A DNA stretch of 64,000 bases. Source: Nemertoderma westbladi. Taxonomy: Eukaryota; Animalia; Xenacoelomorpha. The DNA is taken from contig JAUCBJ010002964.1 in assembly GCA_032718475.1 (NCBI GenBank), forward strand, positions 5,551-69,550, given 5' to 3'. Positions 7,767 to 39,117 of this stretch are shown here, in pieces; position 1 is the stretch's first letter; each line of letters begins with the position of its first letter. The notes under the pieces were generated by a model, which worked only from the letters and a program-made list of their open reading frames with translations, made no database searches and was not told the DNA's origin. A program made the position numbers and the translations under genes.

Positions 7767-7872
7767 TATTGAAGTTCACAAGGTTACGCTTGTTACTTAA
7801 TTTTTTTCATGATGCACAAATTCATTAAAGTTACTGTGATGTTGCCTATATACCTACTGTACTTACAGTAGA

Positions 7873-12430: not shown

Positions 12431-12439
12431 CTCCCCCCC
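12431..12439 (-). other. Polypurine tract of element 1 (GGGGGGGAG)
   Basis: Purine run immediately 5' of the 3' LTR TG; preceded by an 11-bp-stem hairpin at 12440-12468. Confidence 0.85.
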
Positions 12440-13118
12440 ATGCTATCTTCCCGGTGAGAAGATAGCATCCACCTCTAGTGCGCTACAATTCCGCTGGATC
12501 CCGATCTAGTATCGGGTGTGGGGTGGGATTATTTTCTCTCGGAGCCGGCTTCCCAGGCCGCTCCCTGTGGGTATGATAATGCTACCCCGTTTGTCTGGCG
12601 TCCCGTGTCGGGCCGATCGTGCGCTCTTCCCACACGACTTTTGTTTCCCCAACACCTTCGCCCTAACTCTCCTCCACTCTCACCCTAACTCTCGCATACT
12701 CCCGGACCTCCTCGTCCCACACTCCTCCTCTCACTTCTCCCCCCCCCCACACTTGAATTGCGCCCACGCTCTCTTCGCACTCCACACTATCACCCTTTTC
12801 TCGACCCCTCCTCTCACTCACTCACTCCTCCTGACGAATCTCACCCCCCCTCCTGTGCCGTCGCACTCAAGAAGTGTGAAATCGTCTATTGTCTCGTCCA
12901 TAGTGCCATAGTCAGTTGGCCCCCAATCCCAGTAGCTAATTGAGAAAGGTTGTATGACTATAGTACTTACTTCGAATATGTATATTTCATTACTAGATTA
13001 CTGATTGCTACGTACGTACATACAAATTGCACTTATTTGATTATTTACATTATTTGAATTTGTATTTAAGAGTTCGCACGTTTCGCGTGGTGCCTTCCAG
13101 GCATGTTACACCAAAGTC

Positions 13119-15674
13119 TTAGTTCGTTCCACCAGCCTTTGGGAACCACCTCAAGTCTTTCCCTTTGCCGTCCTCCTCCCTGGGTCGTTTCCTGGTCACT
13201 GCCGCTCCTCTGGGATCTGCTTTCTGTCTTCGGACTCTCGCCGCCACCTCCTTACTGATCCCGGTCGTCGACTCCTTGGGTGCCGATGTTATCAGCTCCC
13301 GATATCGCTTCGCGGGTGGCCCCTCCGAGTGGCCCTGTTGTCTCCCCCTGGTGGCGTCCCATAAGATCATCTTCATTGCCCGCAGCACATGCTCCGCCAA
13401 GAAATCCCTAAACTCTCCTCTGGTCTGTGGCGTCCACCTATGCAAATACCTCTGCGTATTTATCACTCCGGCATATGATGCCGCCGTCGCCACTTCCTGG
13501 TAGGTAAACGGAAGCCTCCGTTTGATAATCTCCATGTGAGCCTCCTGATTGATGTTAAAGAAGCCCCACCGGAACTCCTGGGCCTTCATACGTTGCTGAG
13601 TCATCGCCCCGACGTCGGCCCACTCCTCAAAGATCCTGAACTTCTCTTCGTCGTCCATCCAGTCGCACTGGCGTCCGTAATGTCCCCGAAAGTTACATTT
13701 CGAACATCGGTTATGCAACCGTGGACACGCTCCCATCCTGTGGCTCGACTCGCGGCAATAGAGACAGCTAGTCCCTTTCTGGAACCGGTACAAACAGCTC
13801 CTTTCCTGGTGGGTCTGTCTCCCACAGTAATCGCAGCCGAGTACCAATGTCTCCCGCCCCAGGTCGTCTTTCGTCCCAAGCGATCTCCGCGGTCTGTGGA
13901 GTCGCTGGTAAGCGAACTTCCGGACGTTAGTGTCCCTATCTACGTCGATCTCCTCGCCCCTCTCGGGCATCGTCTCCCCGAATACTACCCGTGGTGCCGT
14001 CCCCGGTTGCTCGCCCAACCTGATAGTGCTCCCCGCGAAATCCATCGCCGGCTCCTCGTGCACCCAGGCCCGCTTGCCGGGTCTATCCCAGAAGGCCCTC
14101 GCCCCACTGGCCGTCACCACCCTCCCGCCAACCCAGTCTGTGTCCGAGTGGCCTATCCTCCCGATGGGCGGCATCTCTCCGAACTTGTCGTCGTCTTCGT
14201 CCTCCTCTGGCAGTGGCTCCAACTCCGGTATCCCGGTGGACCCACTATGTCCCTTCCCGCCTTGGCTCTTGCCCGTAGCTCTCCATTCCTCTAGCTCCCC
14301 TAGCTTCCTTAGCGGCTGATCGCCTTCGGCGCCCGCTGGTATGGGCATCGCTTGCAATCCCGACATCGACTGTTTCGGTGATCCCACCGTCCATCCCAGT
14401 TCTCGCCCTAGAGACTCCCTGACGAAGTCCAACGAAGTTTGTCTAAGCCCGCCTGTTCCCCGAAGCCGTAGCTCTGCGCCCTAGCTTCCTCCTCCCTTTC
14501 CTCTGCTTCTCTCCTCTCCCATCTAGCGACTTCTTCCAGTCGCTTCGCCTCTCGTCTATCCGTCTCTAGCTGCTCCCATCTCTGATACGGCGTATCTATC
14601 TCCCCGTCTACCAGATGTCGGCTGTTGTAGTACACCGACTCGCCCTTCAGCCCCGGGTGGTCTACCAGACCCTCGAAAGCCGTCTTAAAGGCTCTTCTGT
14701 AGTTTAGGGGTGATCCCGATAATAGGAATGCCGCCGGTTCCCTCTCGATAACCACGGTCATGAATAGGTTAAGCAAACCTATCATTATCCAGTCCTCCTG
14801 CAGGATATATCACTTCTGATATACCTTTATCGCTCCTCTTCGGAATTGATACACCTCTTGTTTTCCCGGCCTTGCTCCCCACTTCAGCGAGTTCGCTAAT
14901 TCTGCTCCGTACTCTTCTCTGAACTTCCCCCAGTCCATTGGTTTGTGACACACGAGCCCCAATAGCTGGCCCATCGCCACCGCTCCGCAATGGCCTGTTT
15001 TCTCGACTAATCCCAATCCGTCTGGTGCTGTCATAGCCATGTAGACCGTCTGCATGTCCAGGAGGTTGGGGGTGTCCGGACCGATGATTCGCTCCGCGTC
15101 ATTGCGAATCGCCGATCCCACCTTCGTTGTCAACTTCTCTCTCACTAGGACTTGCACCGCCCTCAGCAGCCGGTTTAACTTCGGCCCGTCCTTCTTCCCA
15201 TAGGTTCCCAGGTCGAATAGGAAAATATCCCCATTTGGCGCGGCCAAATGTAGGAGTATGGTTCTGGCCGATCCCGCCGATCCTCTCCTCGAACCCTCCT
15301 CGTCTTCCACGGTCCCTTTGTCGTCTAGGATCATGTATCCTCCCCTGTTGACGGACTCTATGAACCTCTTCCAATCTTTCCTCGGCGACTCTCTCGCGTA
15401 CTTCGGAATCCCGAACTTCGCCTCGTCCCCTTTCACCACGTAGTGGCAATGCTGGAAGATTGCGTTGTCCAGCGACGGCGTCCCGTAGGTCCCGACCAGC
15501 CGCTGTTCATGCACCTCCCTGAAGTGGTCCTGCAGCACTCGCGCTGCGTGACCCTTTTCCAACCGCTCGTAGTATCCCCTTGTCCTCTCTTCTGGATGCC
15601 TCTTGGTGAAATCCACCAGTGGTCTCCTTTCCTCCTGACTCCGCCTTTCTCTTCCTGATCAGCTTCCCTGCCAT
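13119..15674 (-). pseudogene. Accessory ORF of element 1: DEDDy (RNase D/WRN/EXD-like) 3'-5' exonuclease-like domain, coiled coil, three CCHC zinc knuckles; disrupted
   Basis: Pieces 14810-15616 and 14408-14785 are in frame across one TGA; a frameshift leads into 13119-14432. Motifs ILDDKG, LLHLAAPNGDIFLFDL, KVGSAIRND, NLLDMQ, LLGLVCHKP, YQK*YILQE, then CDYCGRQTHQERSC / CLYCRESSHRMGAC / CSKCNFRGHYGRQC. Confidence 0.75.
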
Positions 15675-16174
15675 TTCGAACTCTCCCGATCGCTCACCTA
15701 TAAGGTGGTGCCTTACCAAGGCGCAATATAAGTGAGTGATGTAGCTAGGATGGTCTGTACAGTCCGATAATGGCCTATCTCTCTCTGAAATGCTAGGTTA
15801 TTGCCGAATTTTCTTACTTTTATTTTCTAAGGTGCCAAATTTCCTAAATTCCCTAATTTTGTCCGTTACTTTAATTATGTTCCAGAATTTCTTTATTACT
15901 GTTACCATAATTTGTTCTCTTAGCCCTATTTTATTTTTAATATTTTATTTTTAATTCGATCTTAATTCTACCGTCCTACTACTTACTATTGCCTATGGAT
16001 TATTCTATTTTGTAATCCACATTCTGGCCTACTCTATGGGCCTGTGCAGTACGACAGTATGCGTCGCGTGGCCTACACGATTTATCCAGCTGTACTCACA
16101 TGCCCCCCTCTCGCTACTCACTACTGACTAATATCTATACTATATATACCCTTCTACCTCTATCTCTTACTAAC

Positions 16175-16705
16175 TAGCACTACGTACTTTCTTACTAACT
16201 TCTAACTCTCTCTAACTAACTAACTAACGGTACTACGTACCCTCTAACTCTTGCTCTCTCTAACCAATGGTACTACGTACCCTCTTACTACTCTAACTCC
16301 ACTAACTAACGGTACTGCGTACCCTCTTGCTAACCTCTAACTCCACTAACTCTCTCTACTAACTAACGGTACTACGTACCCTCTTACTAACCTCTAACTC
16401 CACTAACTCTCTCTACTAACTAACGGTACTACGTACCCTCTTACTAACCTCTAACTCTTCTAACTCCACTAACTCTCTCTACTAACTAATGGTACTACGT
16501 ACCCTCTTACTACTCTAACTCCACTAACTAACGGTACTACGTACCTCCTAACTAACTAACTAACTCTAACTTTTGGTACTACATACCTCCTAACTAACTA
16601 ACTAACTCTAACTTTCGGTACTACGTACCTCCTAACTAACTAACTAACTAACTCTAACTTTCGGTACTACGTACCTCCTAACTAACTAACTAACTCTGAC
16701 TCTAA
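16175..16705. repeat. Tandem array inside element 1 (CTAA-rich units with GGTACTACGTACC core)
   Basis: About ten variable-length units between the pol stop and the accessory ORF. Confidence 0.9.
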
Positions 16706-16813
16706 TTTTTTTATTTATTTATTTTTATTTTGTGTGTGGGAAGGGCGTCTCACCCTCAATCCCACCCCCCTCAGTCCAAAACTTGGACGACTAAACTTCT
16801 CTCTAACTCCATT

Positions 16814-19800
16814 CTAAGGTGCCCCTTCTAGTAGACAGCACTTCCCTACAGCCCTCCTGTAGGTTTTTCTGTCTTTCGCACCTATCTTGCCACTTATCCA
16901 CACTTCTACCGATCGGACTCTTCCATCCTCATCGGAGTAAGTTCCCACAACTCTCGCCAACCGCCACTGGTTGTTGATGATGGTATCATCCGTGACGATC
17001 ACGAGATCCCCCTCTCTTAACTCTCTGTTCGTGTTCCTCCACTTGCTTCTTCTGTGAAGTGTGGGTAGGTATTCCTCAACCCACCTCCTCCAATACTCTG
17101 CGCTTATCGCCTTAGCGACTTTCCAACTCTGGCGGGAGTGTATGTCATCTGGGTCTACACCCCGCATATCGATAGTCGCTGGCCTTTCCATTAGGAAATG
17201 GTTGGGCGTCAGCACGTCTAGTGACTCAGGGTCGTCATTCTCCAGATATAGCGGTCTGCTATTAATGATACCCTCACACTTCGCAAGTACTGTTCTCAGC
17301 ACGTCTTCTGTAACCATGTGGGTGTTCATCAACTTCGTCATGAGACGCTTCGAACTACCCACGAGTCTCTCGACGCATCCTAGGGTATGCAGTGCATACG
17401 GCGTCCTCCGCTCCCACTTTACTTGTCGTCATCTCATGGCTGCCCTGACTTCCTCCCCTCCCAGGATGTCCAAGGCCTCTGCCATCTCGTTCTCCGCTCC
17501 CACAAAGTTGGTTCCAATGTCGGAGTATATTACTGCGATCGTCCCACCTTTGCGTTCTCTAAACCTTTCTAAGGCATTAATGAATGCCGATGCGGTTGCA
17601 TCTTGGGTGAGTTCTATCCCTACCGCCCGCGTGTTGTTACATACGAAGATAATACCGTAGCGTTTCTCCGTGTGCCGCATCACCTTGATCTTTATTGGCC
17701 CGAACATGTCCACACCTCAATGCGTAAATGGCGGGTCGTGATGTCTTACCCTACTCGCCGGTAGTGGTGCCATCTCCTGTATGGCTCGCTCCTTCTTCGC
17801 TCGCCGGCAGGTTTGGCACTGCCCCACTACCGCTTTTACCTTCTTCCTCAACTGTTTGACCCAAAAGGTCCTCCTTATCTCCATGAGGGTTCGGTTGGTG
17901 CCCCCGTGCAATATCGACTTGCGGGAGTCCCAAATAATCTGGTGGACTATCGGTGATGCTGTGGGGATGATGATGGGCTTTGGTGGTACGATGATACTGT
18001 TGTTGTATCCCACCCTAGAGTTCATTACTAGAATCCCGTCATCATTGAGTTGTGGTGACAGCGTGATTAGCTTGCTGTCCCGTCGGAGATGCTGCTGTTT
18101 ACCGACGCGTTCCACCTCGTCGCCATAGTTCTTCCGTTGTTCATAGCGGATGACTGCTTTGGCCGCTCCTTCCAGATCTATTGTTGTCGTAGTCTTTACG
18201 CCTTTGCCAACCCCCGCGAGGAAATTCCCGAAGGCTCTCCAATACGCCACTAATTTCTTGGTCTTGTACCAACTAGAGCTGTAGCTGAGGAGTTTATCCG
18301 TCGGGTTATCGCACAGTTCTCCTGGTTTTGGTTGCACGTCCCTTATCTCCCTCACCATCTGGGAGTATATCTCTTCTCCCTCCGAATCTCCCTCTTCTCC
18401 CTCCAATACTGCTTCTCCTGAGCCCAGGTCCACCTTTCTCATCGGCGGCCAGGCCTCCTTGTCGCTCAGAAACTGTGGCCCGTGTTGCCACAATGCTTCC
18501 CTTTTTAAGAAAGTGTGGCGTGCCACGCCCCTCGATAACAAGTCCGCTGGATTCTCGTCCGTTGGGCAGTAGTGCCACCTTTCTAATTCTGTGGTCGCCC
18601 TTATTTCATCCACCCTATTTGCGACGAATATAGTGTATCTCGTCCTCTCGTTATGTAACCAGCCAAGTACTACCACGGAATCCGTCCAGTAGTGTGTCTC
18701 CACTATGTTGGGAATAGCGTCCATTAAGTAGGCTGTGGCCCTAACTCCTAGTCTCGCTGCTGTTAACTCGAGCTTCGGAACTGATGCTGAATCTGGTGGC
18801 GTCGACTTCGCCTTGCTGAAGGCAAGTCTGGGCTTGTGAGGCCCCTCTCGTTGTACTAAATAGAGTGCCACTCCGTATGCCTCTAGTGACGCATTGGAGA
18901 ACATGTGCAGATCCAGGTTCGTCATGTCCCCATCCGGGAAATACACTCGTGGCATGCTGTATGTTCCCATATGCTCCAAACCTTCTGTCCACTTACACCA
19001 CCGTTTCCTGATCTCTTCTGGTACCTCTACGTCCCACTCATCCTTAAGTTTGTATACTTTCTTAAGTATCTGTTTCCCTGTGACTAGTAGTGGGGATGCT
19101 AGGCCTAGGGGATCGTATATCCTTGCTATATACGACACATAGCCCCTCTTTGTGTGGATGTCTGCGCCCTCCTGGCTCAACTGGTACTTCAGTTCATCAG
19201 TCTCTCTGTTCCACACGATTCCCAGTGCCTTCTGTTGAGACTCTATTCTCTTGTTCGCCATGTCCTGCCCCTTTGCTGTTGTGGGATTATCCATGGTCGA
19301 TCCTGGTCTCTCATCTTTTATCGCCTTGATAAATTCCTTCGAACTGGATTGGAATTTGGTTAGGTTGAAGCCGGATCCTTTAAGGATGTCGCGAACCTCG
19401 CGCCCTGTGTCCGGTAGCTCCTTAACCGTATTTCCAGACTCCATCCCGTCGTCTACGTAGAAGCCGCGTCGAATCATATCGACGGCTCTAACACTGTATT
19501 TATCTTCCTTTCCCTTTACTGTGTCTCTTACGGCCATAGTCGTCGTAAATGAAGACGACTTGGCTCCCATATTCTGTACTATCATCTTGTACATCGGTAT
19601 TGTCGACGGTTCCACGTCGCCGTTGTACCATAGGAAGCGTTGACTGTCAATATCCTCTTCCGTCACACGGACTTGGTTGAACATGCCTTCTATGTCACAG
19701 GTGAAGGCGTGTTTCCCATTTCTAAATCTAAGTAGGACCTCTATCCCTGAGTTGTATATGTTGGGACCCTCTAGCAGATAGTTGTTTAGGCATTTTCCAT

Positions 19801-20749
19801 TGGTCTTTGCCGACGCGTCCACTACCATCCGCAGCTTACCTTTCTTTGGATCTAAAGCCATGTGGAGTGGCAGGTAATATGTCCTGTCCGTGTTCAGTTC
19901 GTCGACCGGTAACTCCACGGCCCATCCTTTCTCGACGTACTTTCTGATTGTCTTGTGGATGTACTCATTCTTTTCGGGGCTCCGTTTTAACGTCTGTTTC
20001 AACTTACGAAGCCTCGTGAGCACCATCCCTTTATTATCGGGCAGTGGTAGCTTTGGTAGCTTCCATACCATTCCTATGGTATACCGCCCCTCTTCGCATC
20101 TCATAGACTCCTCTACGCTCTGCTGGGCCTGCTTGTCTTCTACCGAGGTCCCGACCCCGGTTTCCTTTAGCCCCTCAAAATCCTGTCTGAGCAGTCTCTT
20201 GAGCTGTTCCTCCGCTCTCTCATCCTCTATTTCTTGCTTGGTTCCCGCGAACATGCATCCCGATGTCTCCGACATCCTAAATGGTATCTTACTCTTAATT
20301 GGGCCGCTCAGTGTCCACCCGAACGGTGTTAATATGGCCACCGGGTCACACTGCTTGTCTTCGCCGAAGACCATTTGCATTCTTTCGTGGGCCGTCGGGC
20401 AGTCCATTCCTACTATGATGGATACTTTCCTAACGTCCACCTCTGGGATTGAGAAGTCGATATCATCCAGGAATTTATATTGTTCAACCTCGATGTTGGT
20501 TGGCCGCCTGGCATTGATATTTATTGACTCTATCACTTGGATGGGGTTGATGGTCGCCCCGTAGTCGCATCCCGGTGCCACCGCTGCAATTGCACACCGT
20601 CCGGTCCTCATCTCCAGGACCTCATCTTTGCTAGAGATTGTTGTTACCCCCATTCTACTTGGCCTCGTTCTCAATCCTATCTCTTCGGCCACCCAATTTT
20701 CGATTAATGTGAAGGCAGCTCCACTATCGACCAGCATCAGTGTGGTCAC
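16814..20749 (-). pseudogene. pol: pol of element 1 (aspartic protease, RT, RNase H, integrase) with in-frame stops
   Basis: LVDSGA (PR); YYLPLH, RMVVDAS, DIEGMFNQV, FYVDDG (RT); YDPLGL, HMFSNAS (RNase H, catalytic D>N), PKLEL, WTDS, NPADLLSRG; DMFGP, SDIGTNF, INSRPL, LTPNHFL (IN). Track ORFs 17717-20749, 17429-17713 and 16814-17362 share one frame, split by TGA codons. Confidence 0.95.
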
Positions 20750-23700
20750 TTATCGATTGCCTTCTCCAATCACCCGCACTGGTACTACCCCAAGTAGCAC
20801 CGTTCCTCTCTTCTTCGCCCCTACCGTGCTCGTTGCCATCGTTTGGCCTTTGCTTTGACCGAACTTAATTGGCGTCTCCTTGCATTGCCTGGCTCTATGC
20901 CCACTCATCACACATCGCGAGCAGATCTCGTTTCTCGCCGCGTATTCTACCTGATCTTCCCTGGGTAGCGCTTGCCAGTACCTGCAGTTCATGGTTTGAT
21001 GAAGCGCATTTGTATGTAGCTGGCATTTGCTCTTTGGGTTGTAGCTGTCCTTGTACAGTGCATTGCGTATCGCAGTTGCATTTGCACCAAAGTCCCTACT
21101 ATTCTTATTGTTTGGGTTCGGCGTACTGGTCGTACTGGGGTTGTATTTATTTGTGTTGTTATCTTTCCCCTGTCCGCTCCATGATGTGGTCTTACCCCCG
21201 GCTACCTGTGGACTTGCAGTCCCCTGCGTCGCTGCGTATGGCAGTGATTGCCTGAGCTTTGGTAATGCGTTTGACGTGTTGTGTTCTGGTTTCGGCCTAT
21301 GGTAATCGGTTCTTGATCCCTTTCTCAGGCTGTCCTCACTATAGACTGGGTCGGTTATTAATTCGGCTTCGTAATTTAAGAAGCTCGACATTTCTTCTAA
21401 ACCCGGTTCCGCACCCTTCCTATCTCGAGTGGAGAAAGCGATTTTCCTCCACTTGTTGCGCAGCCATATCGGTAGTGCCTGCGCTATCGTGGTGATGTTG
21501 TTGGACGCGTTGAGTTCATATGGCGCGTCTAGCGTTTTTAGCACGATTAGCGCCTTCTCAACTTTGTTAGCGAATGTCTTTATGCTAAAGGGGTTATCCT
21601 GTAGGCCACCCGATGTTATGCCCCTCAGGGTTTGCCGGATGATCTTGGCCGGGTGCCCGTATTCCCTGTCCAGTGCCCGCCATGCCATCGTGAAGCCGCC
21701 CTCTATGCCCTGGTATTGCCTCACGATGTCGTATGCTGGGCCTCCTGTGTATACTTGCAGATATTTTAGGCACTCCGCCTGCGTCAAGTTCTTTGTTGGT
21801 ATTTCGTTACTATACATGCGCCGAAACTGTAGATATTCTTCCGGCCTGCTCCCATCGAATTTGAATGGTTCCACGGGTGGTAGCTCGATCCTAGTTTTTA
21901 GCGCATCGATTAACGTGGCCATTCCCATCGCCTGCGCTTCCAATGGGTTCGATGGATGTTGCATAGTTTCTCCTGTTGGGTGCGGTCCGTCCGTCCTATT
22001 TTCTGCCCTCCTCTGGCTTGGGTATATCATTGGGGGTAGCGGCCCCCTCCATACTTCTGTGTCGCATGATCTATTTTTATCCAAGGGGTTCGTTGTTCTT
22101 ACTCCTGTCAGGGTATATTGTTGATATTGTGATGGGGGAATGTCACCCTGCCCCCCCCCCCCCCCCCCCACCGGTATGTTTGGTACTGGGGTTGATGTTA
22201 ATATATTGGGGCCCATGCATCTATCCGCAATAATTCCCCCCTCTCCTGGGTATATGTTATGTCCTTGCATGCTGTAGTCATACTGCTGTACTGGTACCGG
22301 TATAGGCCTATCAGCTTCTGGCCTGCCTACCGGTATGTATTCCGCGACCTCCGGGTTTAATCCTGTCGTCCGCGCTATCCTATCGCCTACATTATTTCTG
22401 CCAGCATGGCCTATAGTATGTGCAGTAAGGCCTACAGTATGTCCTACAGTCTGTATGTGTTGCTCGGGATCGAAGTTTATTCTTCTCGAGTAATCCTCCC
22501 CACGGCTACAGTATTCTCGATCGGTAGGTAGATCCCGTTGGAAAGTTTCTCTTCGACCCCCTCTACTGCTCTCGTCCTCGTACCGGTACATCCAGTACAC
22601 CCCTCTCTCGACGCGTAGTGCGCCTCATCAGTTCGCGTTTCTCCGGGACGACGGCAATCTCCCGAAGTTCGACCCCACCGACTCTCCCTTTCCATCTCGA
22701 CTACCGACGGCTCGCTATCCGTCCTTGCTCTCCTATTGTTCGCGGCGATACTTCTCCAACTGTCTTCTCTTCTTCTCTTCTTCTCTTTTCAGTGCAGTGT
22801 TCCCTTCCGTGAGATCTCTCGTCGACCTCCCGGTTAAACTCCACTGTTCTTCTTCCCTCTTCTGATCGGGCTCGACGCTTCGTCCGCCCTCTCGTGACGT
22901 CAATCTGGTCAATCGCAATCCCCCTATTACTCTCCGTCGCCGGGTGTTGCGGTTTACCTAATTCGGCCCGCACATTATCCGCCGATGCCTGTGGGACACT
23001 CTCTGCCCCCCCCCCTCTCGCCGCTAACCTGTTGCTGTGGGGTTCCCGTAGTCCCCCCCCACTCGCCACTAACTTCCCGTTGTGGGGCTCCTGCAGCCCC
23101 CCCCCCCCCCACTCGCCACATATCACACCGCTACCTCTTACTCCACTTCTACACCCCTCTCCAGTCGACACAACGTTTCTACTGCGGCTAGGTCTACTCA
23201 CCCCCGCCTCTCTCTCTACTACTACCTGGCCTCTTTCGGGTTGGCTCAACCCCGCCACCTCCTGCCTACTAACTACGTGGCCTGCCAGGCCGCCGTCGGG
23301 TTGACTCAACTCCGCCACCTCCTGCCTACTAACTACGTGGCCTACCAGGCCGCCACCTGTCGTGTTATACACGTCCGACGCGTCCACATTAATAGCACCA
23401 CCGGTATTGCCATCAGTTAGATCAATTAAGTCTTCTAACTCAATTAAATTATTTTGTGCACCCAAATTAGAAATGGAATTATTTTGTTCGTTTGAAATAA
23501 GATTATTTGAATTATGTTGTGTGGCTACGTTATTTGAATTATTTTGTAAATTCGAATTTGGGTCATTATTTAAATTATTTGGATTATTTTGCGTAACTAC
23601 GTTATTTGAATTATTTCCTACATCAACATTAGAATCGTTCGGATTTAAATTTAAATTACTACCACTAGGTAAAATATTTCCTGCAATAAAAGTTTGGTTA

Positions 23701-25231
23701 GAATTATCCAATACGGTACTATTAATATTAACGTCGCCTACTCTAGTATTATTATTACCCCCCCCCCCCCCCCCCCGCCCGTACGGTCACACCAGTCTCG
23801 GGTTTGTCGTGCGGTCCCTGTAAGTGGGGTATTAATAAATGTTTCCACGACCCCTGGTTCCTCATAAACACTCGAGCCAGCCTCACTCTCCGACAATCCC
23901 ATCCGCGCCAACTCCAGTTTGCGCTTCTGTCTAGTTTGGTACTGTATAAGCCCACTTAAACGCGTATGTAAATCATCCCGCACACGCTGCCCCTGTTCCA
24001 TTCTCTCCTTATTTTCCCGCGTGCTCTGCTCGGCCAGTTCCCTCTCTCTTACAACTCTCTTCATTCGTCTCGCCTCCCTCGCTACCTCACGCTCTTTACG
24101 TTCCGCCTCGCGCTCTTTACGTTCCGCCTCGCGCTCTTTACGTTCCACCTCGCGCCTTTCACGTTCACTCTCCTCTCTCGCCTCACGCTCTTTACGTTCA
24201 CTCTCCTCTCTCGCCTCACGCTCTTTACGTTCACTCTCCTCTCTCGCCTCACGCTCTTCTTGTTCCTTCCTTCCTATTTCTTCACACTCCCTAAAGCTTC
24301 TCGCGGCCTTCTCGGCCCTCTCTCCGGTCTCTCTAACCAGTTCCATTTCCTTCTCTAATAGCGCTCTCCCCTCCTCTAACTGTCTCTCTACTTCTCTCTG
24401 GCCTTGCGCTATCAGATCGAGATGGTACACCGCATTTATTTCCCTCACCCGTCTTTCTTTTGCGGAGGATGTAGCAGACTTATTGGTTGTGATGGATTCC
24501 CTCTGCCTTCCCGTTCTACTAACTTTCCCCCTCCTCCCGGAACTTCCTCCGACCGACGAGACCGAATCCTCGGGGTTAACCTCGGATTCGCCCTCCTCAG
24601 GTCTCCTCCAACCCACTAATTTTGCTCCCCGGGCATCGACTAAGTATGGCCCTATGTACACTACACTAGGCTGCATACCCCTACACTCCCATAGATCATG
24701 CAGTTCGCTGGCAACCCCTCTCGCTCTGTCCTCGGCTAGTTCTCTCTGCCTAAAGCGCAGTAAATAGTTAAAGTGTTCGTTCGACTCACCTAGTCTTTTC
24801 TTTAACTTTACCTCGCCTACTTTCGCCCCTCCTTTGGCCTCTTTAAGTAGTTTCCGGGTCGCGTTGTAGGCCCGTTGAAGTCGATCGCTGACCCCAACGT
24901 CCTCATTGCCGACCTCTCCTCCATCTCTCCGGGTCCGGCGTCGTACCGTCGGCCCCACCGTCGCCGTTCCGGTGGGCCACCCGTCGCCCTCAGCCTGTGG
25001 CTGGCCGGCGACGTTAGTATGTTGACCCTCACTCCGTGCCGACTCGTCTTTCTCCTCTCCCGTCTCGCTTTCTCCTCGTAGACGGTCCCCCACATCTTGG
25101 TTCGCCGGGTCGTTCGTCGTCGGTGTGGCGTTGACCGGCGTCGTGGGCCTATATCGTCTCATCGCGGCCTCGCGGATCGTTAGGTCTCCGTCCGGGGTCC
25201 GCGGCGGTGTCGTCTCCCTCCCTTGGCTCAT
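20750..25231 (-). pseudogene. gag: gag of element 1 (long low-complexity N-terminus, Bel/Pao capsid-like region, Cys/His knuckles); frameshifted
   Basis: ORFs 23738-25231 (contains PEDSVS and E/R coiled-coil repeats), 22701-23711 and 20750-22600 (FKFDG...Y..F, L...YG, LP.WLRNKW, CQLH..H....C, CSRC..GH....C); in frame with pol across a single TAA. Confidence 0.88.
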
Positions 25232-25245
25232 CTTTGTACTTTAGA

Positions 25246-25299
25246 TTGGTGGCTGGTAGTCACTGTTTAACTAGGGGCGGCAGCTTGGGTTTTAATCAC
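25246..25299 (-). other. Non-canonical primer-binding region of element 1, complementary to its own LTR
   Basis: The RNA strand after the LTR end reads GTGATTAAA...CCCTAGTTAAAC...CACCAA with no TGG; complementary segments lie in the LTR at 25478-25486, 25499-25510 and 25523-25528. Confidence 0.75.
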
Positions 25300-25861
25300 T
25301 GTGACGGGATCCACGAAGGATCCCGATTTTTCCGGTTTATCAATCTACGTGTCCCCGCCGTGTGTGAAAGGTGAAAAGAGTTTGTGTTGTTCGTCGTATA
25401 TAATCCTTGGGTATAATAGTATAGATGAATGATGATAATATAGAATTGGTAATATAGTAAACGGAAGGCGGGAAACGGTGATTAAAGTCCCGGTACTTCC
25501 CTAGCTAAACTAACCTAACTAACACCAAATGATACACTGACTAAATGATACACTGACTAAATGATAGCTGTACTGATAATATATTGCACGGTTGGCCAAG
25601 TTACGCTACTCAGCCGGTGCCTTCCCCCCATTGGCTAATAACCCTGTTGTCGCCCCTTTTCCTCCCCAGTAGTGCTTCCCTTCGCCCCTGCTATTCTCTC
25701 TCTTTCAGGGGTGTAACCCCTGACCCCTATTGTGTGTGTGTTTCTCCTTCCCACTTTGTAGGGGTGACACGAGGTTGATATTGGTAATCAACCTCGTGTT
25801 CCCAATATTGCTTAACGGCTCACTCTATGGGGTTAGGTTAGCGGAATTGGATAAGCTAACA
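25300..25861 (-). repeat. 5' LTR of element 1, with CCAAT (25630-25634), TATA-like (25576-25585) and Inr-like TCAGT (~25552-25556)
   Basis: TG...CA termini, TSD, identity to the 3' LTR; promoter motifs identified by consensus only. Confidence 0.95.
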
Positions 25862-25866
25862 GAAGA

Positions 25867-27460
25867 GTTCTAGAACAATAGAAAAGTATTATATACTATT
25901 CTAGAACATAAATAAAAAAAATATATAATGTTCTATAACATATAGTTATTTTTTTTTAATTTTAAATTAGCTAGTAAATTAAAAAAAATATCAAATTTGG
26001 TAGATAAATTTTCTAATTAATAAATACCGGTAATATAAATAAAGAAATTTTTTTGTATTACTAGCTATTTTAAATTTGAAAAATAACTAGATGTTCTAGA
26101 ACATTTATATTATCTGTATTATTTAAGCTCTAGAATATTGTTATATATATATACATATGCTAAATAATATACATATACTATTACATAAATAAAAAAAAAA
26201 ATAATGTTCTAAAGCATATAGCTAGTTTTTTTTTAATTTTAAAATAGCTAGTAAATTTAACAAATAATACAATTTGGTACCGGTAGATAAATTAAGGCTA
26301 TGTAATGCCTATGTTGTAAATGCCTATTCCTATTCCTATGCAATGTAATGTGTTATTACTATTTATTAGGCATTACTATGTTATGGGTACCGGTACCAAT
26401 TTTTTGACCAATTTTTATTATATGAATATGGCTTTTATCATGAGGTTTTTTTGTTCTAGAACAAATATTTAACCTTCTTCCAGTAAGATGGTAGCTAGTA
26501 ATTTTGATTTTGTGTTAGCTAGTACTTTTTATTAGCTAGTGAAAAAAAATTATAATTGAAAAATTGAAAAAAAAATTTAACCAACTTTTTTCCTGTTAAA
26601 ATAGCCTGTTAAATTTAATATGATGTTTTTTGTTCTAGAACAAATATTTGACCTTCTGACAGTAAGATGGTAGCTAGTACTTTTGATTTTTTGTTAGCTA
26701 GAACTACTGTATTTATTAGCTAGTAAAAAAATTTAAGATATAATTTAATTCACAATTATATTACAGGTATATATTTATGCCTGGAATAATCTTGAGCTAC
26801 ATAGTAACATTTATCTCATAGTCAAAGTAGCTTGTAATTATTCACTAGCTAGTTTTTTTTATACAAGATATAGGCAGATGCAACAGTTTTTACTATTCAG
26901 AAATCTAAATTATATACATTTTTATTATACGCAGTCAGAACATTCATCGTGTTTAATACTATTATTTTCTTGATCTTTTCCAGAGCATCCAAAAAAAATT
27001 TCTTGATTTATTTATCGTTTTATTAGTCATTTCGAGAATATATTGATGATATGGAAATTGTCTAAATAAAAGGGGCACTACAAATTATCTTTTGTAATTT
27101 TATGATCACTAGCTATCTTTAAAAACACTAGCTATCATAATAAAAAATAAAAGGTAACCTCTCTCAGAAGGTGAAATTTACGTTCTAGAATACAAAACAT
27201 CGTTCCGATAGATAATTAATATCCATTAACATTGTCAAAAATTTATCAAAAATTAGGTACCAAAAATTTGGTTTTGTATTTTTAAAAACAGTAGTTACTT
27301 AAAAAAAAACACGGGAACAGTTCCGTATGTGCCAACATTTTCGTTGTTTTTTTCAACAAATTGTCATGCTCTTTTGTCAGGTTTTTCTCTTGATAAATGT
27401 TCTAGAACGTATATTGAGTGTTCTAGAACTTTAAAAAAATATTCTAGAACATTTTAATTA
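25867..27460. repeat. Degenerate AT-rich repeat rich in TTCTAGAA and CTAGCTA motifs; continues at ~11590-11861 on the other side of element 1
   Basis: Recurrent (G)TTCTAGAACA in both orientations; internal duplication at ~26440-26550 and ~26620-26730; probably an old DNA element targeted by element 1. Confidence 0.55.
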
Positions 27461-27730: not shown

Positions 27731-27988
27731 TTAAAGGGGAATACCTGATAGGTGAATCCCAGAAAGGTTAACGTCTATGTATGTACTGTATAACGTAAGG
27801 TAATTGTGATAGGGAAAATACACCGAGTAAGTTGAAAGCTGTCAATCTAAAGTACAAATATTTGTACTTTAGATTGACAGCTTTCAACTTACTCGGTGTA
27901 TTTTCCCTATCACAATTACCTTACGTTATACAGTACATACATAGACGTTAACCTTTCTGGGATTCACCTATCAGGTATTCCCCTTTAA
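27731..27988. mobile_element. 258-bp perfect spacer-less palindrome bounded by TTAA; Kolobok-like MITE
   Basis: Arms mirror about 27859/27860 (AGTACAAAT|ATTTGTACT); ends TTAA-AGGGGAAT...ATTCCCCT-TTAA fit a TTAA TSD with RR termini. Confidence 0.75.
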
Positions 27989-29439: not shown

Positions 29440-32412
29440 CTACTACAGTAGGATCGGCATGCTGCATTGCAGCTGCATTTTTAAGAATGCTGTGCCGGCT
29501 TGTCAACAAAATTGCACCGTCACAACTCCCTATCACCCATGACATTTGCTAGATCATCCGCATCTTTAAGGTCAGTGTCCTTTAAGATGCGTCTCAAGAA
29601 AGTCATGGGCTGTCCACCATGCTTATTCACTCCATGAGGCTGCCAAAGTACAAGATTATGCACTGGCTGGTCCTCACGGCGAAAGCAATGTCCTGCAAAG
29701 CGGAGGCAAATTTGTTCTAGTGTCAAGCTTGGGGGAACCAATGAGACACCTCCAATGTTATATAGTGTCTGGTTGGAGATGTGTGCATTGTACTTGACAC
29801 AATGAACCCGGCGTAGCATTCTTGTGAATGTGCCATCCAGAGATTTGGTGTCCTCAGCAGTTAGAGCCCAGCATGGACTCCCGTAGAGGAGTACTGGAAC
29901 TACTGCTGCTCTAAATAATCGGACCTTAAGTTTCCGATTAATTCTAGGTGACTTCCAAATCCTAGAAAGCCTATTCAAGGCTGCCCATGCCTTTCCCTTA
30001 CGTATTCGAAGGTCCTCACCTGACTTCCGGATCCATGATCCAAGGTAACAGAAGTCGTCCACATGCTCAAGCATACCATCCTTTGAGCTTATGCTCATCC
30101 GATCAGAGACTTGCTGAGGACTTTCAAAGTTAACTGTCAGAATTTTGGTCTTTCTGGAGTTAATAAAAAGACCAACACTAGAAGCAGCATGTTCTAATGA
30201 GCTGAGGAGCCGTTGGGCTCCCTCTAATGATTCTGAGAGTACTCCTAAGTCATCAGCAAAGTCTAGATCAGTTAGGTACTTGGCAAGACTTCCTCGACTT
30301 CTGGAGCCAGTAGGTGGAGTTATCATCACCCCATCATCATTATGATGATCTAAGGACATGCGTAGAACATAGTCAACCACAATAATGAACAAGAATGGTG
30401 CAAGTGTGTCTCCTTGGAGGACGCCCCATAACACTTCAAATGGTTCTGTGTCACCGTCAACAGTAGACACAAATGTTGTCGAACCATCGTATACTGATCT
30501 GATTGCTGCAATAATTTCATCAGCAGAGGCGGAAATCCTGGGGGGGAGCAGGGGAAATTGTCCCCCCCACTTTTTAGAATCCATGATAATGTCCCCTCCA
30601 CATTTAGGTAGCACATGTTTTTTCATTCAGTCCAGATTCCACCGGCGGTTGAATTGATCCAATTATCGGTTAAATATCATTATAGCGGTTATTACATGAA
30701 ACACGGCAACGTTGGTATATTGCCTCTATGTATACTAGCCTCAATGTGAGCAGGGCCTCATTACCGCCTAGGCTAACAAGGCCATCATGGCGTCGGCCTT
30801 GTGGCCGGCCGAATTATAACATGGGGCCTCGAACAATACAAGAGCTATTTTTATTAATAATGATTTTAAAGACATTCTAACCACATTTAGATAGTTAATT
30901 TATTTGGAAAAATCGTAAATATTCATTCCAGAACATATATTTATTTAACATGGGGTGAATCAGTCAGCTAGTAGAGGGACAGAAACAAGTAGAAACATTT
31001 TAAAGTTGAGAGTTGTTTCTATTGGTTGTCTGGCAACTGACGTAGCCGGCTGGGGATTTGGGATGCCCCATGAGTGGACAGGGCATCCAACTACTGCTAA
31101 CATACTGTAACTGTTTCCAGTGAAACAAAATATGAGGGCCCTTAGTAGTCAATGTGAGAGGCAGCCAAGTTGTAAATATTCATTCCAGAACATGTATTTA
31201 TTTAACATGGGGTGTATCCATTCAATTCATTAGTAGCGCAGACAAGTAGACACTTAGTATATTGAAGGTAAGTTGATTCTATTGGTTGACTGACTAGACC
31301 TCTGGTGTATACCATGAGCGCATATATACAATACAATAGGAAGGGATTCCCTCTAATATTGATAACAAAATGGCACAATGCAATATACTTTATTAGTGTT
31401 ATTTTTCCGTGGTTTGCGTTATGGGCGAATTACTCAATAGTATAGTTTAGTATCGTTATTGGCTTTAATGTTGGCTGTAAAACCCTTAACTATAATGGAG
31501 CAATTTAATAAGTCGCTGCAGTCCCGCACTATGACTCTTAAAGGTACGATGGAGACAGTCCCTCTGATTGTTAACGAACTGCAGAGGTTGAGAACAGCAG
31601 AGGCATTCAGCGCGGATTTCACTGAAGCTAGTGCGAAGCTAGAGGAATTGGGATTAAGTACGCTATCGATTCCAAGAAATAGACGCCCCCCAAGACGTTA
31701 TACTGGTCCTGCTGAACAATATCACTATAGGGGCTGTTGCGCTGTCAGTCAGAGAGGTAACAGCCCATGGGGTAAGGATTTACCCATGGGGCACTAACTA
31801 TCAGACAGTCTGATACCAACTGTCAGACAGTCTTTTTCAACTATCAGATAGATGATCGCCCAGTTACAAGTTGCCCGATAGTTGTATTTTTTAAACCCCG
31901 AGTGTTGTTGACGGAGTCTGTTACTTCCGAAATCGTTAATCGTGGTGCCGGTGCCGGAATTATGCTGAATGAAAGTATGCTGAACATACGTGACCGAGAG
32001 ACTGAATCAAAGGCCTTGAAGAAGTCAACAAAGATAACAGCCAGATGCCTATCTTTCTTTTTTGATAATTCTTTTTTAATTTAATAATTTTTATCCTTCT
32101 AAGTGCCAAAATGGGCTCCATGGTCCCACGACCTTTACGGAACCCATTCCGATTTCCACGGAGCAGTCTCTCAATGGGATCCCTGTTGCGATTTAATAGA
32201 ATCCTATTGTATAGCTTTGCAGCAATCGAGATCAATGAGATTCCCCGAAAAGAACCATACAGTGTTAGGTTGTCCTTCTTGGGAACTGGCACCAACTTAT
32301 TTGTTTTCATTTCTTGTGGGACTCTTGTTGTTCGGTACATGTCTACTATGATGGGATAGATGAGCTTTAAACACTCAGGTATTTTAAAGACCTCAGGGGG
32401 AACACCATCTAC
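29440..32412 (-). mobile_element. RTE copy 2 (5'-truncated), interrupted by an insertion at 30524-31967
   Basis: Near-identical to copy 1; (TAG)n tail; TSD-like TTTTCTCAACTA at 29428-29439 and 32448-32459; premature stop and an AT-rich frameshifting indel near 32070-32090. Confidence 0.92.
30524..31967 (+). mobile_element. Composite DNA-transposon debris including a hAT (ZMYM1-like) transposase fragment at ~31459-31710
   Basis: Begins CAGAGGCGGA...GGGGGGGG (hAT-like terminus); peptide FNKSLQSRTMTL...V...LQRLR...F...LSIPRNRRPPRRY resembles the mid-region of hAT transposases; absent from duplication unit B. Confidence 0.6.
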
Positions 32413-33785: not shown

Positions 33786-34784
33786 CTCATGTACTGATGT
33801 AGACACGGAAAAGAGTACAGCTGTACAGGGGTATCTTTCCGATTGCGCGAAGGTAAATCATCCTCTAACAACTGGTAGGCCTTGCTGCCTTGGCCTACCG
33901 ATACTTGGTCGAACGTGTCTGACTCAAACGAAGGAGCCTACCTGCTGGCTGGCTGGACGGGCGTAGCACATCTCTGCCATCTGCGCAGCCCTTCCACCTT
34001 CTAGCACTTTCAGACTTTGCTGCTTTGCCTGCCCTTGCACATTTCTGCGCCGGCTCCCGCTGTGTGTTGCGCGCGCAGTTGCAAGGTCAATAGTATCTAC
34101 ATCATTGTCCAGAATAGGGTGTTTCCCTTCACTTCTATGGGGCTTTCTATTATTCCTACCTGTCCCAAATACGTTGTGTAATGATTTCCAACCTGTCCAA
34201 TATAGGGGCATCCAATCAAATCATCATATGAGCGAACTCCTCTTCATCGGACCAATACCAACATTCCTAAAGTTAGGCATCTCCCTTATTGGCTATATAA
34301 TGTAAAGGTTAACGGAAAATTCCACTGATATATAATCCAAGTGTCAACTACGAATCCAGGGCTCATTATAACAACCTATACTGGACAGAGCAACGTATTT
34401 GGGACAAGAGCTGGTTGAGGTATATGTACAGTGGAAATTCCCATTCTAAATAAGGGCATTTGGAATGCTTGTTCCCTAGTTATGGTTAAAGATATACTGT
34501 GGGTGCCTTGCAAATGGCCTGTACGACTGATGCATTATAGGCTATAGTGTCATCATAGTCACGTTATTTAATTTCATGTTGTACAATTTATTCATATTGT
34601 GCAATTTATTCATGTTGTGCAATTTATTCTTTGTGCAATTTATTCATGTGGTGCAATTTATTCACTTATAATAAATCTAAATACATTCGTATATTAATAA
34701 TTAAATGACAATCAAATTAGTGATATCGCAACCTCCTCCCCTGGACACAACTTCATCCCAAATAGTCCTTAATAAGTCTTAAAT

Positions 34785-37700
34785 TTGACTCAAATAGGTT
34801 GTTAGTGTCCCATATAGGGTGTTTGTGTCCCATATAGGTTGATTTTGTCCAAAATAGCCTGTAGCTTTATCAAAATTATTTCAAATAGTTTGTAAATGTA
34901 AAGGAATACTGAAAAGAATATCGACTTCATAATCACAGCTTTAATTCCAATTTGTCCCAAATAGGTTGTTTATGTCCCATATAGGGTGTTTGTGTCCCAC
35001 ACAGGGTGTTTTTGTACCAAATAGCATGTAACTTTCTCAAAATGATTTTACATAGTTTATAAATATGATGGAAATACTCAAAAGAAAATAGAATCCACTA
35101 TCATAGCTTTAATTTAAATTTGTCCCAAATAGGTTGTTTGTGTCCCATATAGGGTGTTTGTGTCCAGTATATGGTGTGAAGTGCTTATAATGATTTCAAA
35201 TAGTTTCGAAATGTAATGGAATACTCAAAAGAATATAGCATTCACTATCATAGCTTTAATTTAAATTTGTCCCAAATAGGTTGTTTGTGTCCCATATAGG
35301 GTGTTTGTGTCCAGTATATGGTGTGAAGTGCTTATAATGATTTCAAATAGTTTCGAAATGTAATGGAATACTCAAAAGAATATAGCATTCACTATCATAG
35401 CTTTAATTTAAATTTGTCCCAAATAGGTTGTTTGTGTCCCAAATAGCGTGTGACTTTCTCAAAATGATTTTAAATAGTTTCTAAATCTCATGGAATACTC
35501 AAAAGAATATAAAATTCACTACTATAGCTTTAATTTCAATTTGTCCCAAATAGGTTGTTTTTGACCCATATAGGGTGTTTATGTCCCGTATAGGGTGTGA
35601 ATTGCTTATAATGATTTCAAATAGTTTCTAAATGTAATGGAATCCTCAAAAGAATATAGAATCCACTATCATAGCTTTAATTTAAATTTGTCCCAAATAG
35701 GTTGTTTATGTCCCATATAGGGTGTTTGTGTCCCATATAGGGTGTTTGTGTCCCAAATTGCGTGTGACTTTCTCAAAATGATTTTACATAGTTTATAAAT
35801 ATAATGGAATAGTCAAAAGCAAATATAATTCACTATCATAGCTTTAATTCAAATTTGTCCCAAATAGGTTGTTTTTGTCCCATATAGGGTGTTTGTTTCC
35901 CGTATAGGGTGTGAATTGCTTATAATAATTTCAAGTAGTTTCTAAATGTAATGGAATCCTCAAAAGAATATATAATTCACTACCATAGCTTTAATTTCAA
36001 TTTGTCCCAAATAGGTTGTTTTTGTCCCATATAGGGTGTTTGTGTCCCGTATAGGGTGTGTATTTCTTATAATGATTTCAAATAGTTTCTAAATGCAGGG
36101 GAATACTCAAAAGAATATAGAATTCACTACCATAGCTGTAATTTCAATTTGTCCCAAATAGGTTTTTTTGGCCCATATAGGGTGTTTATGTCCCGTATAC
36201 TGTAGGGTGTTTGTATCCCAAATAGCGTGTGACTTTCTCAAAATGATTTTAAATAGTTTCTAAATCTCATGGAATACTCAAAAGAATATAGAATTCACTA
36301 CTATAGCTTTAATTTCAATTTGTCCCACATAGGGAGTTTGTGTCCCGTATAGGGTGTGAATTGCTTATAATGATTTCAAATATATTTTCTAAATGTAATG
36401 GAATATTCAAAAGAATATAGAATCCACTATCATAGCTTTAATTTAAATTTGTCCCAAATAGGTTGTTTATGTCCCATATAGGGTGTTTGTGTCCCATATA
36501 GGGTGTTTGTGTCCCAATTTGCGTGTGACTTTCTCAAAATGATTTTACATAGTTTATAAATATAATGGAATAGTCAAAAGCAAATAGAATTCACTATCAT
36601 AGCTTTAATTTAAATTTGTCCCAAATAGGTTGTTTTTGTCCCATATAGAGTGCTTGCGTCCCGTATAGGGTGTGAATTGCTTATAATAATTTCAAATAGT
36701 TTCTAAATGTAATGGAATAATAAAAATAATATAGAATTCACTATCATAGCTTTAATTTCAATTTGTCCCCAATAGGTTGTTTTTTGTTGTCCCATATAGG
36801 GTGTTTGTGTCCCGTATAGGGTGTGAATTGCTTATAATGATTTCAAATATTTTCTAAATGTAATGGAATACTCAAAAGAATATAGAATTCACTATCATAG
36901 CTTTAATTTAAATTTGTCCCAAATAGGTTGTTTATGTCCCATATGGGGTGTTTGTGTCCCATATAGGGTGTTTGTGTCCCAAATTGCGTGTGACTTTCTC
37001 AAAATGATTTTACATAGTTTATAAATATAATGGAATACTCAAAATAAAATATAATTCACTATTATAGCTTTAATTTAAATTTGTCCCAAATAGGTTGTTT
37101 TTGTCCCATATAGGGTGTTTGTGTGCCAAATAGCGTGTGACTTTCTCAAAATGATTTTACATAGTTTCCAAATATAATGGAATACTTAAAAGAAAATATA
37201 ATTCACTATCATTTTTTCTTTAATTTAAATTTGTCCCAAATAGGTTGTTTATGTCCCATATAGGGTGTTTGTGTCCCATATAGGGTGTTTGTGTCCCAAT
37301 TTGCGTGCGACTTTCTCAAAATGATTTTACATAGTTTATAAATATAATGGAATAGTCAAAAGCAAATATAATTCACTATCATAGCTTTAATTTAAATTTG
37401 TCCCAAATAGGTTGTTTTTGTCCCATATAGGGTGTTTGTGTCCCATATAAGGGTGTGTATTGCTTATAATGATTTCAAATAGTTTCTAAATGTAGGGGAA
37501 TACTCAAAAGAATATAGAATTCACTACCATAGCTTTAATTGCAATTTGTCCCAAATAGGTTGTTTTTGGCCCATATAGGGTGTTTATGTCCCGTATAGGG
37601 TGTTTGTGTCCCAAATAGCGTGTAACTTTCTCAAAATGATTTTAAATAGTTTCATTACATTTCGAAACTATTTGAAATCATTTTAAGCACTTCACACCCT

Positions 37701-38835
37701 ATACGGGACACAAACACCCTATATGGGATACAAACAACCTATTTGGGACAAATTTAAATTAAAGCTATGATAGTGGATTCTATTTTCTTTTGAGTATTTC
37801 CATTATATTTATAAACTATGTAAAATCATTTTGAGAAAGTCATACGCTTTTTGGGACACAAACACCCTATATGGGACACAAACACCCTATATGGGACATA
37901 TACAACCTATTTGGGACACATTTAAATTAAAGCTATGATAGTGGGTTCTATTTTCTTTTGAGTATTTCCATTATATTTATAAACTATGTAAAATCATTTT
38001 GAGAAAGTCATACGCTATTTGGCACACAAACACCCTATATGGGACAAAAACAACCTATTTGGGACAAATTTAAATTAAAGCTATGATAGTGAATTATATT
38101 TTCTTTTGAGTATTCAATTATATTTATAAACTATGTAAAATCATTTTGAGAAAGTCACACGCTATTTGGGACACAAACACCCTATATGGGACACAAACAA
38201 CCTATTTGGGACAAATTTAAATTAAAGCTATGATAGTGGATTCTATTTTCTTTTGAGTATTTCCATTATATTTATAAACTATGTAAAATCATTTTGAGAA
38301 AGTCATACGCTATTTGGCACACAAACACCCTATATGGGACAAAAACAACCTATTTGGGACAAATTTAAATTAAAGCTATGATAGTGAATTATATTTTCTT
38401 TTGAGTATTCCATTATATTTATAAACTATGTAAAATCATTTTGAGAAAGTCACACGCTATTTGGGACACAAACACCCTATATGGGACACAAACACCCTAT
38501 ATGGGACATAAACAACCTATTTGGGACAATTTTAAATTAAAGCTATGATAGTGAATTCTATATTCTTTAGAGTATTCCATTACATTTAGAAAATATTTGA
38601 AATCATTATACGCAATTCACACCCTATACGGGACACAAACACCCTATTTGGGACAAAAACAACCTATTTGGGAAAAATTGAAATTAAAGCTATGGTATTA
38701 AATTATATATTCTTTTGAGTATTCCATGAGATTTAGTAACTATTTAAAATCATTTTGAGATAGTGACACGCTTCACACACTATATGGGACACAAACACCC
38801 TATATGGGACACAAACAACCTATTTGAGTCAAATT
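34785..38835. repeat. Satellite of ~120-145-bp units with internal ~19-bp subrepeats (GTCCCATATAGGGTGTTTGT); forward to 37653, reversed after
   Basis: Recurrent TCACTATCATAGCTTTAATTTAAATTTGTCCCAAATAGGTTGTTT; two alternating unit variants. Confidence 0.95.
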
Positions 38836-39117
38836 TAAGACTTATTAAGGACTATTTGGGATGAAGTTATGTCTGGGGGAGGAGGTTGCGATATCACTAA
38901 TTTGATTGTCATTTAATTATTATTATACGAATGTATTTGGATTTATTATATATGAATAAATTGCACCACATGAATAAATTGCACAATGAATAAATTGCAC
39001 AATGAATAAATTGCACAACATGAATAAATTGCACAATATGAAAAAAATGCACAACATGACATGAAATAATGTGACTATGGTGACATTATAGCCTATAATG
39101 CATCACAGTCTTACAGG

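Follow-up and report, generated by a model that had tools for sequence, protein, structure and literature searches.

Pairing of the primer site with the element's own LTR in two Bel/Pao-type retrotransposons of Nemertoderma westbladi, and a case for self-priming

In two young Bel/Pao-type LTR retrotransposons (elements 1 and 2) of the window, i.e. the whole 64,000-nucleotide stretch of DNA that was analysed, the primer-site position lies flush with the LTR end, lacks TGG and is complementary to a segment of the element's own LTR; the same arrangement recurs in related families with other letters. The explanation that we regard as probable, by analogy with Tf1, is self-priming from an internal primer located about 77-105 nt into the predicted transcript, with a presumed cut freeing its 3' end. 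Self-priming had been proposed in an earlier note on this DNA: the pairing and its recurrence in relatives have held up, whereas priming itself, which we infer, is their best explanation.

Structure and coding content of the elements

Both elements possess the TG...CA LTR ends, the TSD and the polypurine tract by which Bel/Pao elements are recognised (Table 1). Their Pol is of the Pao type, in the order PR-RT-RH-IN, with matches to Peptidase_A17 (E 3.6e-39 and 1.1e-33), DUF1759, DUF5641 and Integrase_H2C2, and 120 of the 120 homologues among the matches listed carry PF05380. Element 1 is assigned to the Bel/Pao type because of its DUF1759, protease, Peptidase_A17, Integrase_H2C2 and DUF5641 matches; element 2 has the same Pfam families, with a single frame change in the RT region. 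Judged from their sequence, both are thus Bel/Pao-type by Pol and form a variant departing from the ICTV profile in primer site and size, being filed in this way because neither element shows a TGG in the 50 nt that follow its 5' LTR.

Concerning element 1, its gag-pol is interrupted by in-frame stops at 20750, 17717 and 17429, frame changes are present in gag, and the first ATG is found at 25231, 15 nt beyond the CACCAA arm. Since the coding regions of both window copies are broken, the proposed mechanism applies to the family. In element 1, a short-unit tandem array (16147-16701) separates pol from the accessory gene; element 2 has a 2.2-kb leader with a 290-bp tandem duplication (44956-45537) and is inserted into a repeat of the RVT_1/DUF6451 RT type.

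As for the rest of the window, three related copies of an RT matching RVT_1 and DUF6451 (1783-3897, 29520-30626 and 42308-43435, minus strand), which we take to be Penelope-like, were observed, together with an intronless ORF of 939 aa with Patched and sterol-sensing-domain matches (4956-7775, minus strand), probably a host gene. A 147-bp satellite that contains 20-bp sub-repeats and is arranged as inverted blocks occupies 34518-39117 and 62428-64000 and adjoins the solo LTR at 39118. Finally, AT-rich DNA at 27731-27988 forms a perfect 258-bp palindrome, which may be real or an assembly artefact.

Table 1. Positions in the window of the elements, their LTRs and the features discussed in the text
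Feature	Position	Strand	Remarks
Element 1, 14.0-kb Bel/Pao-type LTR retrotransposon	11867-25861	-	young copy, interrupted gag-pol; TSD TCTTC
Element 1, 5' LTR (562 bp)	25300-25861	-	TG...CA; ends GTCACA
Element 1, 3' LTR (564 bp)	11867-12430	-	preceded by G-rich polypurine tract; primer copy at 12053-12045
Element 1, gag-pol in pieces	16814-25240	-	DUF1759, protease, RT, Peptidase_A17, Integrase_H2C2, DUF5641
Element 1, accessory region 3' of pol	13119-15658	-	exonuclease-like piece (lead only) and triple Cys/His-knuckle piece
Element 1, primer-binding site position	25291-25299	-	GTGATTAAA; flush with LTR end, no TGG
Element 1, candidate self-primer 3' end	25478-25486	-	TTTAATCAC
Element 1, TATA-like stretch and TCAGT initiator-like motif	25550-25585	-	predicted start 25554; motif prediction only
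Element 1, 12-bp flanking helix, 5' arm	25499-25510	-	upstream of primer
Element 1, 12-bp flanking helix, 3' arm	25265-25276	-	downstream of primer site
Element 1, outer helix, TTGGTG arm	25523-25528	-	
Element 1, outer helix, CACCAA arm	25246-25251	-	
Element 1, 8-bp hairpin, U5-IR-like	25305-25325	-	ends 5 nt before LTR end
Element 1, predicted helix, bases just after primer (25477-25467) with 25359-25348, and loop between	25348-25477	-	constrained fold
Solo LTR, element 1 family, 83% identical	7873-8413	+	TSD GTAGA; primer TTTAATCAC at 8224-8232
Solo LTR, element 1 family, 80% identical	39118-39662	+	TSD ACAGG; primer variant TTTAATTAC at 39478-39486
Element 2, 17.3-kb Bel/Pao-type element	43534-60805	+	LTRs 1143 bp, 7 differences; TSD ATGGG
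Element 2, candidate self-primer 3' end (11 nt)	43970-43980	+	105 nt from predicted start 43876
Element 2, primer-binding site position	44677-44687	+	flush with LTR end, no TGG
Element 2, accessory ORF (596 aa)	57794-59584	+	triple-knuckle domain as in element 1

Pairing between the primer site and the LTR

In element 1, GTGATTAAA (25299-25291) is the exact reverse complement of TTTAATCAC (25486-25478); beyond it, on the LTR side, the following pair is C-A. This 9-bp match is the longest among the 60 offsets tested and is located at offset 0; the 11-bp match of element 2 is also the longest at offset 0. The description given in the earlier note (GTCACA end, flush 9-bp complement, C-A mismatch at the edge, no TGG, further helices) was found to be accurate, and the shuffle test that it had suggested was run. 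Among dinucleotide shuffles of the LTR, 121 of 20000 gave a flush match of at least 9 for element 1 (378 of 20000 with offsets 0-3) and 35 of 20000 gave one of 11 for element 2. When the search was at its loosest, admitting contiguous and spliced matches at offsets 0-9, shuffles equalled element 1 in 48 cases out of 300 and element 2 in 14 out of 300. Taken alone, the evidence from element 1 is modest, and the main weight lies with the relatives. In the accessible text of PMC6317226, the criterion for self-primers is 10 bp; element 1 lies one base below it and element 2 above it.

A spliced primer was also sought in elements 1 and 2 and none was found (238 and 39 of 300 shuffles, respectively, were as good), so that both are read as the contiguous, i.e. 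unspliced, form. The starts predicted in their LTRs from a TATA-like stretch and TCAGT, an invertebrate initiator motif (25554 and 43876), place the primer end about 77 nt inside the predicted transcript of element 1 and 105 nt inside that of element 2; other TCAGT copies in the LTR of element 1 would put its start at 25574 and 25538. Neither leader has a second copy within the window, and no Rfam match was obtained in 25100-25900 up to E 5.

Predicted folding of the leader

The 9-bp match of element 1 is adjoined by the 12-bp helix (25510-25499 with 25276-25265), whose pair probability is 0.97-1.0 and whose length is reached by chance in 46 of 1000 shuffles. The TTGGTG:CACCAA helix (25528-25523 with 25251-25246) has a pair probability of 0.5-0.99, and the stem of the U5-IR-like hairpin shows no change among the four LTR copies present in the window. 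The fold of the element 1 region has a z of -2.68, with one of 100 shuffles as good. When the primer-site helix is imposed, it meets a second helix (25477-25467 with 25359-25348) and the U5 hairpin in a helix junction at the 3' end of the primer.

In whole-leader folds, the probability of the primer-site helix is 0.01 for element 1 and 0.0 for element 2, and forcing it costs +4.1 kcal/mol (325-nt fold) and +14.5 kcal/mol (885-nt fold), respectively. Neither helix is therefore predicted as ground state by these models, the gap of 4.1 kcal/mol being small for a 325-nt fold; RNA fold models are poor over spans such as the 700 nt of element 2. Concerning the flanking duplex between the cut piece and the leader, element 1 beats 1975 of 2000 shuffles by energy and element 2 beats 1852 of 2000, the remaining 148 being as good, which is not clearly above chance.

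Variation within the element 1 family

Four DNA runs from one organism, representing at most three samples, were mapped on 24700-26000. At 25297, the third base of the primer site, A instead of the G of the window was found in most of the contig depth in four of the four runs (14097/16032 in X1, with 22 contigs; 11593/11989 in X2, with 18; 6241/6599 in X3, with 14; 152/152 in X5, with 3), depth not being equivalent to copy number. The A variant pairs with the T of TTTAATTAC in the solo LTR at 39118, as G pairs with C in the window copy. The partner base (25480) is C in three of the four LTR copies of the window, two of which are element 1's own, the third being the other solo LTR (7873). Taken together, the variant at 25297 and TTTAATTAC would fit a matched change, position 25480 itself being absent from the 40 rows listed out of 453. 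Across the LTR copies of the family, which are 80-83% identical overall, the primer and the 12-bp arm are nearly invariant.

Related Bel/Pao loci

An alignment combining both Pols with 13 matches served to scan metagenome contigs, and the best 79 of at least 546 confirmed loci were considered. The LTR end was fixed by two diverging copies in ten of these 79; among them, the LTR copies of L021 are only 71% alike, the end is uncertain by about 7 nt in L028, and 400 nt were taken as the LTR in L068 and L028. In all ten end-fixed loci, the primer site pairs with the own LTR over 10-13 bases within 0-9 nt of the LTR end, with different letters. The lineage-wide, non-chance reading of the earlier note is supported by these relatives. 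Its "natural covariation test" between elements 1 and 2 is weaker than claimed: because their LTRs cannot be aligned, the two represent a recurrence and not strict covariation. A real matched change occurs elsewhere, between the sister families L068 and L028, both with contiguous primers, where a single A/T substitution in the LTR has its opposite counterpart in the primer site. Sister contigs belonging to one and the same family are near-identical at the primer site, with no covariation among them.

A joint test covered these ten loci and elements 1 and 2 (offsets 0-9, contiguous or spliced, the range having been widened to 9 after L028 was seen). Own pairs reached at least 9 bases in 12 of 12 cases, at least 10 in 11 and at least 11 in 9, vs. 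25, 8 and 5, respectively, among the 132 mismatched LTR-leader pairs, a part of which combine related families. Nine of the 12 own pairs were equalled by at most 5 of 300 shuffles; the match of L068 was equalled by 39 of 300 in this loosest search. The 3' end of the primer is AC in 10 of the 12 and AT in the other 2, and TGG occurs in the first 8 nt of a single one (L053).

Flush matches of 7-11 bases are found in four loci (L003, L007, L021 and L064). In seven (L003, L007, L021, L025, L032, L053 and L069), a 10-13-nt match runs across a GT-AG junction, with only 0-6 of 300 shuffles as good, mostly with consensus-like GTAAG donors and with pyrimidine-rich acceptors. Six further loci, of which only the LTR start was known, were scanned blindly for junction matches after a CA: three gave such a match, of 15 nt in L010 (0 of 60 shuffles), 11 in L026 (0 of 60) and 11 in L017 (3 of 60), and nothing above chance was obtained in L015, L075 and L044. 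In the seven loci and these three, the primer site complements the exon-exon joint of a predicted GT-AG intron of 77-186 nt inside the LTR.

As for other sources, 47 pattern matches were obtained in viral contigs, none confirmed as a relative, and no tRNA gene was found in the window or in the 60 of 79 loci scanned for them.

Kinship of the two elements

Over RT-IN, the Pols of the two elements share 29% identity. Trees were built with FastTree (122 rows) and IQ-TREE (57, 36 and 21 rows), leaving out 23 near-duplicates, L058 (short match) and poorly filled rows; one insect bel12 match was the named Bel/Pao reference. The elements are non-sisters in three of the four trees (FastTree 122; IQ-TREE 36 and 21) and are joined, as long branches and with a warning, in the 57-row IQ-TREE tree; constraining them together was not rejected (p-AU 0.414), which does not establish a clade. 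The RT/IN phylogeny that had been suggested as a test of their grouping thus resolved no clade of the two. In the IQ-TREE trees, the starred group of L003, L007, L021 and L064 excludes both elements, which stand on long branches outside the starred groups of signal-bearing loci and are placed firmly in none of the trees.

Independently of Pol, a triple Cys/His knuckle with a conserved motif after it is encoded in a sense gene 3' of pol in both elements. P0121 is the one match to the accessory protein of element 2 among 1.84 billion representatives (E 5.8e-5) and also matches that of element 1 (pairwise E 2.9e-26). Oversize and this orphan triple-knuckle gene favour a common lineage for the two elements. 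The upstream accessory piece of element 1 resembles 3'-5' exonucleases of the DNA_pol_A_exo1/WRN type (Atlas score 0.82), which is a lead only. Searches with the accessory proteins yielded no Pfam match under E 0.01, no PDB sequence match and no word-search match, the single-sequence model (pLDDT 34.6) was unusable, and no env-like Pfam match was found in the extra 3' gene.

Proposed mechanism and alternatives

In Tf1, the primer is released by RNase H cleavage and its pairing is needed for transposition. For element 1, we infer a comparable series of steps beyond the pairing itself. Transcription would start near 25554, and roughly the first 77 nt of the RNA would pair back onto the leader, with the 12-bp helix as their main hold, so that TTTAATCAC would come to lie on the primer site, its 3' end reaching the LTR edge. 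This end would be freed by a cut immediately 3' of the primer, for which the RNase H of the element is the likeliest agent, as in Tf1. Extension by RT would then run across the LTR as far as the cut; the cut, rather than the transcription start, would thus mark the beginning of the strand-transfer repeat. During retroviral plus-strand synthesis, the primer is copied into its binding site; here, the same process would keep primer and site matched at each cycle. In the spliced-type relatives, the primer site would be the complement of an exon-exon joint because the plus strand would rewrite it from the spliced primer.

The pairing could also belong to a leader structure with another job (a packaging or dimer signal, a translation switch, the hiding of a 5' poly(A) or splice site), priming being left to some host RNA. 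Stability in the fold indeed resides in the 12-bp helix and the U5 hairpin rather than in the primer-site helix, and the conserved hairpins of fungal GalEa elements replace the primer site with no mechanism known in the accessible part of PMC5445492. We nevertheless consider it unlikely: primer sites vary by family, so that no single host RNA fits all of them, and the start of the match at or a few bases from the LTR edge, the AC or AT ends in 12 of 12 cases and the exon-exon joints in seven of ten relatives are left unexplained. A priming of element 1 by an internal tRNA-Lys fragment, over 7-8 bases after a 2-3-nt spacer as in half-tRNA-primed copia elements, with the LTR match being secondary, would explain neither element 2 nor the ten relatives. 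It draws on an 8-nt match put forward in the earlier note and on fungal FunCo1, whose primer site complements an internal part of tRNA-Lys and has ATTAA in common with element 1 (PMC5445492, accessible part); however, the FunCo1 site pairs over 11 bases vs. only 7-8 here, and element 1 departs from it after five letters. Furthermore, with the variant that predominates in the family, the first pair of the 8-nt register is lost, although not that of the register one base later, and half-tRNA priming is confined to Ty1/copia lineages in the plant survey of PMC6317226, as far as its accessible text goes. We hold this origin of the primer to be very unlikely.

That the 9-bp match of element 1 is due to chance or is a decayed relic, the signal of the relatives belonging to other lineages, appears most improbable. 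Its flush position (only 121 of 20000 shuffles), the adjoining 12-bp helix (46 of 1000 by length and 25 of 2000 by energy), the AC end shared with the relatives and the near-invariance of primer and arm in diverged LTR copies all count against it, even if 48 of 300 shuffles were as good in the loosest search, the branch of element 1 is long and unplaced, and the motif is AT-rich. In addition, the LTR pair of element 1 is 98.9% identical (four substitutions and one 2-bp indel), which indicates that the family has moved recently without a TGG site.

Self-priming could moreover be set in a broader frame, which we advance tentatively, at somewhat less than an even chance. A large branch of animal Bel/Pao elements would have lost tRNA priming and would use an internal self-primer ending in A-pyrimidine, the transcript being cut 75-105 nt after its start and the site being rewritten at each cycle; in many families, host splicing of an LTR intron would assemble the primer and so gate replication, elements 1 and 2 representing the unspliced form in a giant sub-lineage. 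That the exonuclease-like, zinc-knuckle extra gene of this sub-lineage might trim the primer flush is a far-fetched idea.

Comparison with known systems

Statements on PMC10085805, PMC4600332, PMC6317226, PMC5445492 and PMC3286476 refer to the accessible parts of these papers, the last of which concerns gypsy elements. In Tf1/sushi self-priming, the primer is the mRNA's 5' end, engaged in a three-duplex pretzel (PMC10085805, PMC4600332). Tf1, Tf2, Tj1 and Tf1/sushi elements resemble elements 1 and 2 in lacking a tRNA site and in having, after the CA of the LTR, a site that pairs with their own LTR RNA (PMC10085805, PMC4600332), and Tf1/sushi also has further helices round the primer site and a U5 stem-loop (PMC10085805, PMC4600332). 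However, Tf1/sushi elements are Ty3/gypsy chromoviruses with a chromodomain, whereas elements 1 and 2 have a Bel/Pao-type Pol and no chromodomain match. The primer lies at the 5' end of the transcript in Tf1 vs. a predicted 77 and 105 nt inside it here; the pretzel of Tf1 uses LTR sequence downstream of the primer, whereas the main helix of element 1 uses upstream sequence, with a long nested stem and the U5 hairpin; and many of the relatives, unlike Tf1, build the primer across an intron. Elements 1 and 2 thus most likely work like Tf1 without belonging to the Tf1/sushi group.

Self-priming is predicted in more than one superfamily, namely for Tcn1 (gypsy) and for the plant elements TAR/Houba/Osr-1 (copia), with a criterion of at least 10 bp (PMC6317226); it was derived there from the same kind of sequence test as here, in other superfamilies and other hosts. 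In fungal GalEa elements, a self-complementary sequence at the LTR edge, the Conserved Hairpin Site, likewise replaces the tRNA site, but this hairpin is local, conserved in sequence and devoid of an LTR partner (PMC5445492), whereas in the present elements the partner lies inside the LTR and the letters change from family to family.

The ICTV profile of the Belpaoviridae describes an 18-nt site for the 3' end of tRNA-Arg or tRNA-Gly, a size of 4.2-10 kb and a replication that is poorly understood, tRNA priming being taken for granted (PMC8742986). Elements 1 and 2 share with it the LTRs, the polypurine tract, the gag-pol order PR-RT-RH-IN and the Pao-specific Pfam families, but have no tRNA-type site, measure 14.0 and 17.3 kb and carry the extra 3' triple-knuckle gene. 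No report of Bel/Pao self-priming was found in the literature searched, which lay mostly outside subscription papers, and the main text of three Bel/Pao surveys (PMC3118150, PMC554778 and PMC6238403) contains neither "PBS" nor "tRNA".

If the proposed mechanism is true, LTR finders demanding a tRNA site would miss such elements, and the question of priming could be tested directly, by asking whether RNA ends fall on a single predicted base. The mechanism would also be relevant to the order in which hairpin and tRNA priming arose, as asked in PMC3601003. Self-priming would then extend to a third LTR superfamily, with a geometry unlike that of Tf1: an internal primer, a long upstream helix and, in the relatives, primers built by splicing.
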